Positions 56,338 to 62,041 of a stretch of DNA of 64,000 nt are shown here, in pieces. How positions within the stretch are numbered: position 1 is the first letter of the stretch; each line of letters starts with the position of its first letter. The DNA is taken from the NCBI RefSeq assembly GCF_058153355.1, contig NZ_CM177019.1; one strand, written 5' to 3'. Made by a program: the position numbers and the translations under genes. The notes beneath the pieces were generated by a model. That model made no database searches and had not been told where the DNA came from. It saw nothing but the letters and a program-made list of their open reading frames with translations.

Positions 56338-56367
56338 AAAAAAAACCCGCTGATTAAGCGGGTTTTG
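56338..56367. terminator. Bidirectional terminator between crcB and cspE
   Basis: AAAAAAACCCGCTGATTAAGCGGGTTTTGAATT. Confidence 0.7.
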
Positions 56368-56385
56368 AATTCTTGCTGACGTATC

Positions 56386-56595
56386 TTACAGAGCGATTAC
56401 GTTTGCAGCAGAAGGGCCTTTGGCACCGTTAGTGATTTCGAACTCTACGCGCTGACCTTCAGCAAGAGTTTTAAAACCATTAGTCTGGATTGCAGAGAAG
56501 TGTACGAACACGTCTTTGCTGCCGTCTTCCGGAGTAATGAAACCGAATCCTTTGGACTCATTAAACCACTTAACGTTACCTTTAATCTTAGACAT
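56386..56595 (-). CDS. cspE: Cold-shock-domain protein CspE (69 aa)
   Basis: [37 protein letters not shown]... (RNP1/RNP2 motifs). Confidence 0.95.
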
Positions 56596-56769
56596 CAAAA
56601 TTACCTTTACATGAAAAATAGACACAAATGCTGTGTCGGTTACCAGTACACCAATTGTGGTACGCTTTGTCCAGTGCAACTTTACTAAAAAGTGATAAAA
56701 GTCGCGTTATTTTTGATGTTAATTATTTTACTCATTGATTTTAAAGAAGTTACTAAAATTTCATTTGTC

Positions 56770-57330
56770 TCAAAACTGAAAGCGCATCCAGGCAAAGTAC
56801 ACATTGCCATTGTTATAGGTACCCGGAATGTAGGTCATCTGAAAAGTCACTGGACCATAACCCACAGAGGCCAATGGCAGTAGAACCGGGAGAGGGATGT
56901 AATTCCAGTTATCGCGTGCCGTTACGCCAGCGGTGAATCCCAGTCCTAAATGAAAATTTTCATCCGCCAGCGGTCGCCAGGTACTTTCCCATCCGTATCC
57001 GGCAATCGGTTCCCATTTGTTCCACGAGTCCTTAAATGCCATGGCATACAGGCCATGCCAGTTTCCTTTTTCATCCCAACGCGACTGACCAAAACCGCCC
57101 CCCCACGGTCGCTCGTTATAGCGATCGGTTTTTTCTTTGTCGTAAGCGAAACGAGCATGCCAGGTGATGGCAGGAATATATAAATCATAATGTTCAGGCT
57201 GTTGCCAGGTTTGTGTAATATTTTCTCCAAACGTTGTCATCCACTCATCTGCGTTAGCTAAAACTTTACCAACGCTGATTAACTGAATAAAAACAAAGGA
57301 AAATATAGAGACATATTTACTCACGTTCAT
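56770..57330 (-). CDS. pagP: Lipid A palmitoyltransferase PagP/CrcA (186 aa)
   Basis: [30 protein letters not shown]... signal peptide and outer-membrane beta-barrel. Confidence 0.93.
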
Positions 57331-57919
57331 TTGTGACCATAAAACATTTATCAAAAATCTACTATTAGCATAGCAAAGCTACAATTAACATAACCTTAAT
57401 AGCCCCAACATAAAGAATAATCTGAATAGCTGCTCTATTTATTTCCGCTTGTTTAAGTTAAATATTTCCGCGCATCGATTAAAGATGATGCGTCGTTTTC
57501 TGCGATGGGAATAGTCAAAAAAGAAAAACCAAGTCTTTTTTGATGACAAAATGCAATCAAGGAAAAATTATTTTATTTTTTAACTAGATACAACAATCAT
57601 CTTAACGAAGTATATAATATATATCGTCAACCCATGCTCATGGTAGATTATTTTATGAGCACACAACCGCAGCTAACACCATTGCAATTAACAAATTTGC
57701 ATCAATCCACCATCAATTTACACACATTATTATGTGATAATTGCCAACCGCTAAATATGCGTTTTGTTATCTATGTATAAAAACAGCAACTTCAATGTCT
57801 TAATGGCAGTTTTTCTTGATTTTAATCAGCATTCACCGCCAATTTATTGGGCATATTTTTTTCCTTAAGCTTTAGGAATTTTTTATTATTTACTTTGGGG
57901 CCTGGAGACAGGAAAAATT

Positions 57920-59305
57920 ATGCTGACATTCATTGAACTCCTTATTGGGGTTGTGGTTATTGTGGGTGTAGCTCGCTACATCATTAAAGGGTATTCCGCC
58001 ACTGGCGTGTTATTTGTCGGTGGCCTGTTATTGCTGATTATCAGTGCCATTATGGGGCACAAAGTGTTACCGTCCAGCCAGGCTTCAACAGGCTACAGCG
58101 CCACGGATATCGTTGAATACGTTAAAATATTGCTAATGAGCCGCGGCGGCGACCTCGGCATGATGATTATGATGCTGTGTGGCTTTGCCGCTTACATGAC
58201 CCATATCGGCGCGAATGATATGGTGGTCAAGCTGGCGTCAAAACCATTGCAGTATATTAACTCCCCTTACCTGCTGATGATTGCCGCCTATTTTGTCGCC
58301 TGTCTGATGTCTCTGGCCGTCTCTTCCGCAACCGGTCTGGGTGTTTTGCTGATGGCAACCCTGTTTCCGGTGATGGTAAACGTTGGTATCAGCCGTGGTG
58401 CAGCTGCTGCTATTTGTGCCTCCCCGGCGGCGATTATTCTCGCACCGACTTCAGGGGATGTGGTGCTGGCGGCGCAGGCTTCCGAAATGTCGCTGATTGA
58501 CTTCGCCTTCAAAACGACGCTGCCTATCTCAATTGCTGCAATTATCGGCATGGCGATCGCCCACTTCTTCTGGCAACGTTATCTGGATAAAAAAGAGCAC
58601 ATCTCTCATGAAATGTTAGATGTCAGTGAAATCACCACCACTGCTCCTGCGTTTTATGCCATTTTGCCGTTCACGCCGATCATCGGAGTGCTGATTTTTG
58701 ACGGCAAATGGGGGCCGCAATTACACATCATCACTATTCTGGTGATTTGTATGCTGATTGCCTCCATTCTGGAGTTCATCCGCAGCTTTAATACCCAGAA
58801 AGTGTTCTCGGGCCTGGAAGTGGCTTATCGCGGGATGGCAGATGCGTTTGCTAACGTGGTGATGCTGCTGGTTGCCGCTGGGGTATTCGCTCAGGGGCTT
58901 AGCACCATCGGCTTTATTCAAAGTCTGATTTCTATCGCCACTTCGTTTGGTTCGGCGAGTATCATCCTGATGCTGGTATTGGTGATCCTGACAATGCTGG
59001 CGGCAGTCACGACCGGTTCAGGCAATGCGCCGTTTTATGCGTTTGTTGAGATGATCCCGAAACTGGCGCACTCTTCCGGCATTAACCCGGCGTATTTGAC
59101 TATCCCAATGCTGCAGGCGTCAAACCTCGGTCGTACCCTGTCACCCGTTTCTGGCGTAGTCGTTGCGGTTGCCGGGATGGCGAAAATCTCACCATTTGAA
59201 GTCGTAAAACGCACCTCGGTGCCGGTGCTTGTTGGGCTGGTGATTGTTATCGTTGCTACAGAGCTGATGGTGCCAGGAACGGCAGCCGCGGTCACAGGCA
59301 AGTAA
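57920..59305 (+). CDS. dcuC: Anaerobic C4-dicarboxylate transporter DcuC (461 aa)
   Basis: Polytopic DcuC-family protein of correct length. Confidence 0.93.
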   Translation: MLTFIELLIGVVVIVGVARYIIKGYSATGVLFVGGLLLLIISAIMGHKVLPSSQASTGYSATDIVEYVKILLMSRGGDLGMMIMMLCGFAAYMTHIGANDMVVKLASKPLQYINSPYLLMIAAYFVACLMSLAVSSATGLGVLLMATLFPVMVNVGISRGAAAAICASPAAIILAPTSGDVVLAAQASEMSLIDFAFKTTLPISIAAIIGMAIAHFFWQRYLDKKEHISHEMLDVSEITTTAPAFYAILPFTPIIGVLIFDGKWGPQLHIITILVICMLIASILEFIRSFNTQKVFSGLEVAYRGMADAFANVVMLLVAAGVFAQGLSTIGFIQSLISIATSFGSASIILMLVLVILTMLAAVTTGSGNAPFYAFVEMIPKLAHSSGINPAYLTIPMLQASNLGRTLSPVSGVVVAVAGMAKISPFEVVKRTSVPVLVGLVIVIVATELMVPGTAAAVTGK

Positions 59306-61653: not shown

Positions 61654-61754
61654 TGTTTTCCTTGCGGGTTGTCCCGAGCCTCTTTGACGGATGTAATTAA
61701 AATGTTGAATCAAAATACATAGATATTAAATATAATCGTGGCAAATTTTATTCA

Positions 61755-61787
61755 TTAAATCAATTAAATCAATTAAATCACTTAAAC
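61755..61787. repeat. Tandem AT-rich decamer repeats in the dpiB-citC control region
   Basis: TTAAATCAATTAAATCAATTAAATCACTTAAA, about three copies of TTAAATCAAT. Confidence 0.5.
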
Positions 61788-62041
61788 CTGCGGGTCATTT
61801 CGTAATTACATTAATTAAAAAACTTAAAACCATTAAATAAATAAAAAACCACTAACTCTATGTGAAATAAATCAAAATTTCACGCTGCAATACTCCTTAG
61901 GATGTATAGCGAAAGGAGAAAAAGATATACCTCGATCGCCCCCCTTTCTCCCAAGTGAAAATAAAAGGTTATCAATTTGCAACATCGAACAACATTCGTT
62001 GCAAATCGATAACAACATGCACCTTCAGGATACTATTTATT

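Follow-up and report, generated by a model that had tools for sequence, protein, structure and literature searches.

The 589 bp that separate pagP from dcuC in Escherichia coli (positions 57331 to 57919 of the window, by which we mean the whole 64-kb stretch of DNA analyzed) very probably form a bidirectional control region for the two divergent genes, consisting of two conserved promoter blocks with a fast-evolving spacer between them. The gap is an ordinary regulatory region, the main elements of which, namely, control by FNR, by PhoP, and by H-NS, SlyA, and RcsB, are already in the literature, and the finding carries little weight beyond careful annotation. For the locus itself, it revises the placement of the PhoP box and identifies the FNR box as the dominant conserved element; a far-upstream block with a conserved response-regulator-like half-site is the sole modestly new lead. 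The anatomy of the gap, its conservation, the pattern of constraint, and the absence of ORF and RNA signals were computed here, while FNR occupancy, the effects of FNR, ArcA, H-NS, SlyA, and RcsB on expression, and the description of the PhoP box are taken from published papers.

The pagP-dcuC gap is AT-rich and constrained at both ends

The gap is delimited by its flanking ORFs, and the gene order in this E. coli window is crcB, cspE(-), pagP(-), gap, dcuC(+), dpiA(-), dpiB(-). The 99.5%-identical E. coli genome EC42405 and K-12 MG1655 have the identical arrangement, with a gap of 588 bp that carries no annotated feature. Across complete E. coli genomes, the gap was found at a coverage of at least 80% in 5375 of 5426, with 92 to 99.5% identity, and no annotated feature lies under it among the matches listed. 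Its GC content is 0.312, whereas the window as a whole has 0.502; among stretches of 589 bp, just 0.15% are as AT-rich, and the GC minimum of the 64 kb falls within the gap, the composition of which is well beyond chance. TpA steps make up 9.7% of the gap versus 4.7% across the window (about twofold), and A or T tracts of at least 5 nucleotides number 11. The initial annotation had described an AT-rich 589-bp divergent gap without an assigned gene and without an ORF of 60 aa or more; both statements hold, the longest ORF being 48 aa.

pagP and dcuC are divergent neighbors in Escherichia, Citrobacter, Salmonella, Enterobacter, Klebsiella, Raoultella, Trabulsiella, and Buttiauxella, where the gap between them ranges from 281 to 899 bp and its GC content from 0.30 to 0.46. 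Since a divergent AT-rich gap occurs in all eight genera, we regard a long AT-rich gap as an old, common property of the locus. A DcuC scan of species-representative genomes gave 80 Enterobacteriaceae loci for comparison, and in alignments across genera conservation is limited to the two ends of the gap.

Constraint within the gap was mapped using an alignment of eight E. coli strains, chosen across the identity range, and three other Escherichia lineages; nucleotide diversity (pi) for each segment is given in Table 1, together with the coordinates of all features. At third codon positions, pi is 0.049 in pagP and 0.062 in dcuC. Relative to E. whittamii and Escherichia sp. E1V33, divergence amounts to 0.47 to 0.50 in the spacer, 0.22 in the far-upstream block, and 0.33 at third positions, and in other genera the spacer is absent or unalignable. 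Because the spacer varies at or above the synonymous rate, its 246 bp are taken to be unconstrained in sequence, whereas about 343 bp at the two ends are constrained. The earlier description of most of the region as unexplained was therefore overstated, as these 343 of the 589 bp fall into two constrained promoter or regulatory blocks; the remaining 40% or so of the gap is compositional spacer and not hidden coding capacity.

Table 1. Features of the pagP-dcuC gap and its flanks, with nucleotide diversity within E. coli where a segment was scored
Feature	Position	Strand	pi within E. coli	Basis or remark
pagP (lipid A palmitoyltransferase), left flank	56770..57330	-		ORF; RefSeq annotation of the 99.5%-identical locus and of K-12
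pagP 5' UTR, predicted, ~30 nt	57331..57361	-		-10 position and published 32-bp crcA spacing
pagP leader	57331-57366		0.019
pagP -10 hexamer TATGCT	57367..57372	-		TAnnnT invariant in 10-genus alignment
pagP -10 to PhoP box	57367-57401		0.029
PhoP box-type direct repeat TATTAAGGTTATGTTAA (TATTAA-GGTTA-TGTTAA)	57385..57401	-		Position and conservation
Middle spacer, AT-rich	57440-57685		0.085	62 segregating sites in 246 bp (eight E. coli strains)
TGTTTA "half-site"	57450..57455	+		Polymorphic, not conserved
Terminator-like hairpin	57470..57493	+		Not conserved; only such hairpin in the gap
48-aa ORF, not a gene	57634..57780	+		Broken in strains and species
Constrained far-upstream block, dcuC side	57686..57815		0.0165	Low pi (6 segregating sites in 130 bp), low interspecies divergence
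TGATGCAAATT-TGTTA direct-repeat-like element, candidate ArcA or PhoP-type response-regulator site	57689..57704	-		Sequence only
FNR box TTGATTTTAATCAG	57816..57829	+		Near-invariant in 80 Enterobacteriaceae loci
FNR box to start	57816-57864		0.017
dcuC -10 hexamer CATATT	57852..57857	+		Inside conserved block TTTATTsGGCAyATT
dcuC 5' UTR, predicted, with Shine-Dalgarno GGAGACAGGAAA	57864..57919	+		Promoter geometry; Shine-Dalgarno region conserved
dcuC leader	57865-57919		0.018
dcuC (anaerobic C4-dicarboxylate transporter), right flank	57920..59305	+		ORF; RefSeq annotation of relatives; DcuC scan

dcuC has a predicted class II FNR-dependent promoter

The best-conserved element in the gap, an FNR box that is bound in ChIP and that the initial annotation had overlooked, matches 9 of the 10 core positions of TTGAT-N4-ATCAA. 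The hexamer downstream of it is CACATT in other genera; the CATATT found here has A2 and T6 of a -10 hexamer. From the center of the FNR box (57822.5) to the first base of this hexamer is 29.5 bp, the spacing seen in class II promoters. With this geometry, dcuC transcription would start at about 57864, placing the FNR box at approximately -41.5 and leaving a 56-nt leader.

Published data place FNR at this box. Supplement file 6 of Myers 2013 lists an FNR PWM site, CTGATTAAAATCAA, at 655,281 (U00096.2), assigned to dcuC/pagP and bound in ChIP; the motif is identical to the box described here, and conversion of its coordinate (+777 to U00096.3, then mirrored from the pagP start) lands exactly on 57816-57829. 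FNR ChIP-seq peaks were reported in the same study at 655,298 and 655,340. dcuC is a documented member of the FNR regulon, with anaerobic FNR-dependent induction reported for this site, and was classed as directly FNR activated with an expression ratio of 0.05 (Myers 2013), which we read as aerobic/anaerobic since that table gives values of about 50 for the sdh genes.

We propose that the dcuC control region comprises about 230 bp adjoining the gene and that its promoter would be FNR dependent and of class II, with CATATT as a weak -10. It shares with class II FNR promoters (e.g., dmsA, or those of narG-type geometry) the TTGAT-N4-ATCAr box and its distance from a weak -10; unlike them, it has an additional constrained block of 130 bp upstream. 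Myers 2013 noted for dcuC "TSS not in peak region," from which it follows that the dcuC start then on record did not adjoin the FNR box; dcuC may have another, more distal promoter.

The probable PhoP box of pagP lies 12 nt upstream of the -10 hexamer

At the opposite end of the gap, the pagP core promoter would occupy the 70 bp or so adjoining pagP, with a PhoP-type repeat upstream of a weak -10, TATGCT. Across 10 genera, the invariant columns of this hexamer are positions 1, 2, and 6 (T69, A70, and T74 of alignment A1), and the mapped -10 of Salmonella pagP, TATTAT, can be aligned with it (PMC3335776). The pagP strand reads cTATTAAGGTTATGTTAAttgtagctttgcTATGCTaatagta...ATG through the box and the -10. 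The repeat, which lies 12 nt upstream of the -10, has 3 mismatches to (T/G)GTTTA-N5-(T/G)GTTTA, and the TT.A core of both half-sites, 11 bp apart, is invariant in the 10-genus alignment. Matches with 3 mismatches are not above chance on their own (8 found versus 4.2 expected by shuffling), and the repeat was therefore assigned to PhoP because of its position and conservation, not its match score.

The assignment was reconstructed from two secondary descriptions of Minagawa 2003, plus conservation. According to these, the E. coli crcA (pagP) box has three mismatches to the consensus (PMC7667037, citing Minagawa 2003), and the crcA PhoP site is 32 bp from the transcription start site in E. coli, compared with 44 bp in Salmonella (PMC2908699); the repeat identified here agrees with the crcA promoter as so described. 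A sigma70 ChIP peak listed at 655,742 (U00096.2) by Myers 2013 converts to approximately 57368. Transcription of pagP would start at about 57360 to 57362, giving a leader of about 30 nt, and phosphorylated PhoP would substitute for the -35 element. PhoP-activated promoters in which the box replaces the -35 (architecture I/II; Zwir 2012) are organized similarly, the pagP repeat being likewise in direct orientation and at the same distance from the -10.

The Salmonella pagP promoter differs in detail: the activating box footprinted there, CTGTTTATAGTTTGTTAAG, is separated from the -10 by 23 nt and so is shifted upstream by one helical turn, and in a further difference from E. coli there is a second box at 126 (PMC3335776). 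The two species share a half-site, downstream in the Salmonella box and upstream in the E. coli pair, which suggests that the pair used by E. coli is the next one in that tandem array of half-sites.

PhoP control of pagP had been suggested previously from a TGTTTA half-site at 57450-57455. The control itself is supported, being known for E. coli crcA through secondary citations of Minagawa 2003, but the half-site is misplaced: although the sequence TGTTTA is indeed present, it is TGTTCA in K-12, RM13322, ATCC 8739, and EC958 (four of the eight E. coli strains) and is unalignable outside Escherichia, whereas the conserved repeat is the one adjoining the -10.

The spacer as a putative H-NS tract

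Silencing of pagP by H-NS is supported by genetic data in the literature. Deletion of hns gave 18-fold derepression of pagP-lacZ, and hns insertions were recovered in a derepression screen; the same study found that induction of pagP in biofilm needs SlyA and described the promoter region as having three SlyA-like sites (Chalabaev 2014, PMC4147861). RcsB is required for pagP induction according to Szczesny 2018, where GadE was also added as a regulator, and in Yamanaka 2014 the gene belongs to the YdeO > GadE cascade.

The gap has the composition of an H-NS-silenced locus, with a GC content of 0.31, a doubled TpA frequency, and 11 A/T tracts. The high-affinity H-NS motif TCGWTWAATT is not enriched in it (7 found versus 5.3 expected), and at the FNR site itself Myers 2013 gave the enrichment of Fis, H-NS, and IHF as "None." From composition and the published genetics, we infer that the spacer serves as an H-NS nucleation and spreading tract. 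Its sequence would be free to drift, and it would matter through its composition, as a tract from which H-NS silences pagP; SlyA, RcsB/GadE, or PhoP would relieve the silencing. The suggestion of the initial annotation that the gap holds H-NS-silenced promoters is thus borne out for pagP by the 18-fold effect, while occupancy of the spacer by H-NS is our reading of its composition.

Similar arrangements are found at pagC and ugtL of Salmonella and at hlyE and the K5 capsule locus of E. coli, which are silenced by H-NS and countersilenced by SlyA or RcsB; pagP likewise has an upstream region that is AT-rich and rich in TpA steps and A tracts. Unlike these genes, pagP is an ancestral core gene and was not horizontally acquired. 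The gap can be regarded as the site at which lipid A palmitoylation in biofilms is controlled.

A constrained block upstream of the FNR box contains a response-regulator-like half-site

Between the spacer and the FNR box lies a block with far fewer segregating sites than the spacer (6 in 130 bp versus 62 in 246 bp; Fisher p = 1.9e-7). An element within it, at 57689-57704, matches TGTTA-N6-TGTTA with 2 mismatches, and a TGAT is located 11 bp upstream of TGTTAATTG. The 9-mer CAATTAACA at 57685-57693 is identical to 57382-57390 in the PhoP box, the pagP strand reading TGTTAATTG. Of 77 species loci, 54 have a TTAAC at 110 to 150 bp upstream of the FNR box, compared with 9.5% of control bins, and the loci with an upstream TTAAC include 15 in which dcuC does not adjoin pagP; in the short gaps of the Klebsiella type, the TTAAC that aligns is that of the pagP box. 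The TGAT-N7-TGTTAATTG element is conserved across genera, and its distance upstream of the predicted start is about 170 bp for dcuC and about 335 bp for pagP.

It is reasonable to read the element as fitting an ArcA-type or PhoP-type site, and its half-site as a candidate for binding by an OmpR-family regulator such as ArcA. Our first guess at the protein that would bind the block is ArcA-P and our second is PhoP-P, the latter being considered because the pagP PhoP box is formed by an identical half-site. A study of ArcA (Park 2013) gives values of -2.8 for pagP and -4.1 for dcuC in its table of differential expression, which we read as lower expression in ΔarcA. The same study predicted an ArcA site scoring 15 bits or more in the gap, with no ArcA ChIP signal there; the predicted site may be either the element at 57689-57704 or the PhoP box. 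The block might be a shared module through which an OmpR-family response regulator would coactivate both divergent genes under anaerobiosis. We consider this rather unlikely, but if true it would explain the apparent fall of both pagP and dcuC in ΔarcA without a called ArcA ChIP peak.

Possible further promoters and the origin of the spacer

A control region made up of two promoter blocks is compatible with additional promoters that are silenced by H-NS or specific to certain conditions, such as a distal dcuC promoter with a long leader or an upstream pagP promoter responding to RcsB, GadE, or SlyA. We view such promoters as possible but doubtful. Cryptic promoters are common in AT-rich H-NS targets, and the gap contains a perfect TATAAT at 57613-57618 on the + strand; however, the region around this hexamer is SNP dense among strains, and only 2 promoter-like pairs of hexamers were found in the gap versus 5.2 expected from shuffles. 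The literature offers indications of the same kind, including the dcuC start recorded outside the FNR peak (Myers 2013), an RT-PCR signal for the predicted RNA Ssr31 upstream of the pagP core promoter (Wang 2016), and a mention of the pagP/dcuC spacer in a paper on gSELEX with the RpoD holoenzyme. Against these, an extra start site in the gap was not found in the literature consulted, including the supplements of Romero 2014 and of a Shigella M90T study, neither of which lists a start site for pagP or dcuC.

A different origin for the Escherichia-specific middle segment, as decayed inserted mobile DNA or other horizontally acquired DNA, would account for its extreme AT content and for its absence from other genera, in which the gaps are 120 to 300 bp shorter; the gap is also an IS5 target, both in nature (strain F11) and in the laboratory. 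We judge this origin to be very unlikely, however. The gap is single copy, with a median of 1 place per genome in 5407 genomes, and a search of it for terminal inverted repeats, target duplications, and notable tandem repeats found none, the repeats present being short families of two copies each, no more than chance would give. The middle segment showed no ORF remnant with homology, and gap length is continuous among genera, as in ordinary indel turnover.

Searches for a small RNA or small protein

The initial annotation had also allowed for an unannotated small RNA or small protein in the gap, which is long enough for a small RNA. One has been predicted on the pagP strand of the pagP/dcuC gap of Shigella flexneri 2a 301, where Ssr31 (295 nt, 694,274 to 693,980) was scored "Yes" by RT-PCR (Wang 2016), a hint of some transcription upstream of the pagP core promoter. 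Anchored on the dacA/ybeD candidate Ssr5, it corresponds to approximately 57340 to 57650, in the middle and pagP-proximal half of the gap. So placed, however, Ssr31 spans the pagP promoter and about 250 bp upstream of it and ends at about the pagP transcription start site. It was reported without a northern blot or RACE, and the RT-PCR as described was not strand specific (Wang 2016); the curated K-12 record has no small RNA annotated in the gap. Moreover, the region concerned drifts at or above the synonymous rate in E. coli and is unalignable outside Escherichia.

Signals of RNA structure were also lacking. No terminator-like site was found on the - strand within the gap, and the stability of the hairpin on the + strand, -10.1 kcal/mol, is reduced to -2.4 kcal/mol in ATCC 8739 and -4.8 kcal/mol in P31_YH1, with no compensatory changes. 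Folding of 120-nt tiles on both strands gave z values of -1.8 to +1.5 versus dinucleotide shuffles, i.e., no signal, and a search of Rfam at E = 10 yielded only chance-level matches in the gap (snoR775, 23.7 bits; RT-8, 19.4 bits). With neither conservation nor structure nor an Rfam match in its favor, an independent small RNA in this part of the gap is highly improbable. Ssr31, a low-confidence promoter-plus-terminator prediction with RT-PCR, comes from the same intergenic region and strand, and the sequence tests applied here gave no support for it as an independent RNA gene; it looks like a prediction artifact combined with a low-level or non-strand-specific signal, which leaves room for an upstream pagP promoter.

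A small protein can be virtually dismissed: the best candidate, the 48-aa ORF, is intact in six of the eight E. coli strains and well conserved in its C-terminal two-thirds, but it has no upstream Shine-Dalgarno sequence, lacks the start codon in ATCC 8739, has a frameshift in EC958, carries stops and indels in E. whittamii and Escherichia sp. E1V33, and shows mostly nonsynonymous changes at its N terminus, while its conserved 3' part coincides with the DNA block at 57686-57815, which is kept where the frame is broken; the remaining ORFs of the gap (20 to 36 aa) are each interrupted in some strain.

Other sites and repeats

Consensus scans of the gap for SlyA, the GAD box, RcsB/RcsAB, IHF, NarL, CRP, Fur, EvgA, and sigma54 gave no site that was above shuffles or convincingly placed; the SlyA-like matches in the gap need 4 mismatches. 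A sigma54 site in the gap was considered and rejected, as the RpoN gSELEX peak attributed to the pagP/dcuC spacer is best explained by a sigma54 ChIP-seq motif inside pagP, beyond the gap. Minor features of the locus include an imperfect 20-bp tandem in the pagP promoter and an A-tract/T-tract inverted repeat at 57515-57543. The sole genuine Rfam match is the cspA thermoregulator on cspE, outside the gap. Finally, the gap is a recurrent target of IS5, insertion being tied to kanamycin exposure in one laboratory-evolution study.

A sigma54-type sequence within pagP

Features of the pagP/dcuC region and its surroundings
Feature	Position	Strand	Details
cspA thermoregulator family (Rfam)	56338-56751	-	strong match, 123.8 bits, E = 1.6e-32
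sigma54 site-like sequence TTGGTAAAGTTTTAGCT	57256-57272	-	inside pagP; match to IS06
20-bp imperfect tandem	57355-57392		1.9 copies, 83% match; spans pagP -10 and proximal PhoP half-site
perfect 10-bp inverted repeat, A and T tracts	57515-57543		arms TCAAAAAAGA / TCTTTTTTGA, 9 nt apart
exact 12-nt duplicate AGGAAAAATTAT of the dcuC ribosome-binding region	57560-57571 and 57910-57921
near-perfect palindrome TTCCTTAAGCTTTAGGAA	57861-57878	+	spans inferred dcuC start

The sigma54-type sequence within pagP corresponds to IS06, an intragenic site identified by sigma54 ChIP-seq (Bonocora 2015), whose K-12 version reads TTGGTAAAGTTTTTGCT and is centred at 655,846. The -12 element is AGC in the window, versus TGC. 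Shimada 2021 assigned an RpoN gSELEX peak to the dcuC/pagP spacer; this peak is probably explained by the sigma54 site inside pagP.

Repeats within the gap

On the pagP strand, the tandem repeat consists of TATGTTAATTGTAG followed by TATGCTAATAGTAG, so that the pagP -10 element resembles a copy of the PhoP half-site. The inverted repeat lies within the variable spacer, the fast-evolving AT-rich middle of the gap (57440-57685), and carries indels in some strains.

The palindrome at the dcuC start differs from the EvgA box consensus at three positions; it is limited to E. coli and is changed in EC958. The upstream copy of the duplicated dcuC ribosome-binding sequence, which is followed by ATT and then a five-codon frame, varies between strains and is not conserved, and in AT-rich DNA a 12-nt duplication of this kind is close to the chance expectation.

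Disruption of the gap and haplotypes of pagP

The pagP/dcuC gap is disrupted in about 30 complete genomes. In the natural isolate E. coli F11 (NZ_CM184318.1, 2876-4048), nearly the entire gap has been replaced by an IS5 element; the sole remainder is 48 bp upstream of dcuC, and neither the FNR box nor the promoter of pagP survives. Repeated IS5 insertions into the same gap have been reported in kanamycin-exposed MG1655 lines (PMC6307192).

The pagP gene itself looks decayed in two representative genomes, Escherichia sp. MOD1-EC7003 and E. coli SCPM-O-B-8794, one of which retains a full-length sequence of 62% identity and the other a C-terminal fragment only; both genomes carry intact dcuC and cspE. 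Within E. coli, comparison of the gap and pagP (56770-57919) with five further loci (L083-L087) and K-12 separated distinct haplotype groups, with ∼93% versus ∼98% identity to the window, and the PagP protein of the window differs from that of K-12 at five residues. The groups are discordant with phylogroup, ATCC 8739 (phylogroup A) clustering with ST131 (phylogroup B2), and the pattern suggests recombination or old alleles at this locus.

Other features of the window

The cspA thermoregulator match covers the leader and coding region of cspE. A second very AT-rich divergent gap was observed at ∼61700-61950, where GC content falls as low as 0.23 in 200-bp windows; it is flanked by dpiB and by an ORF starting at 61955, the counterpart of K-12 citC.
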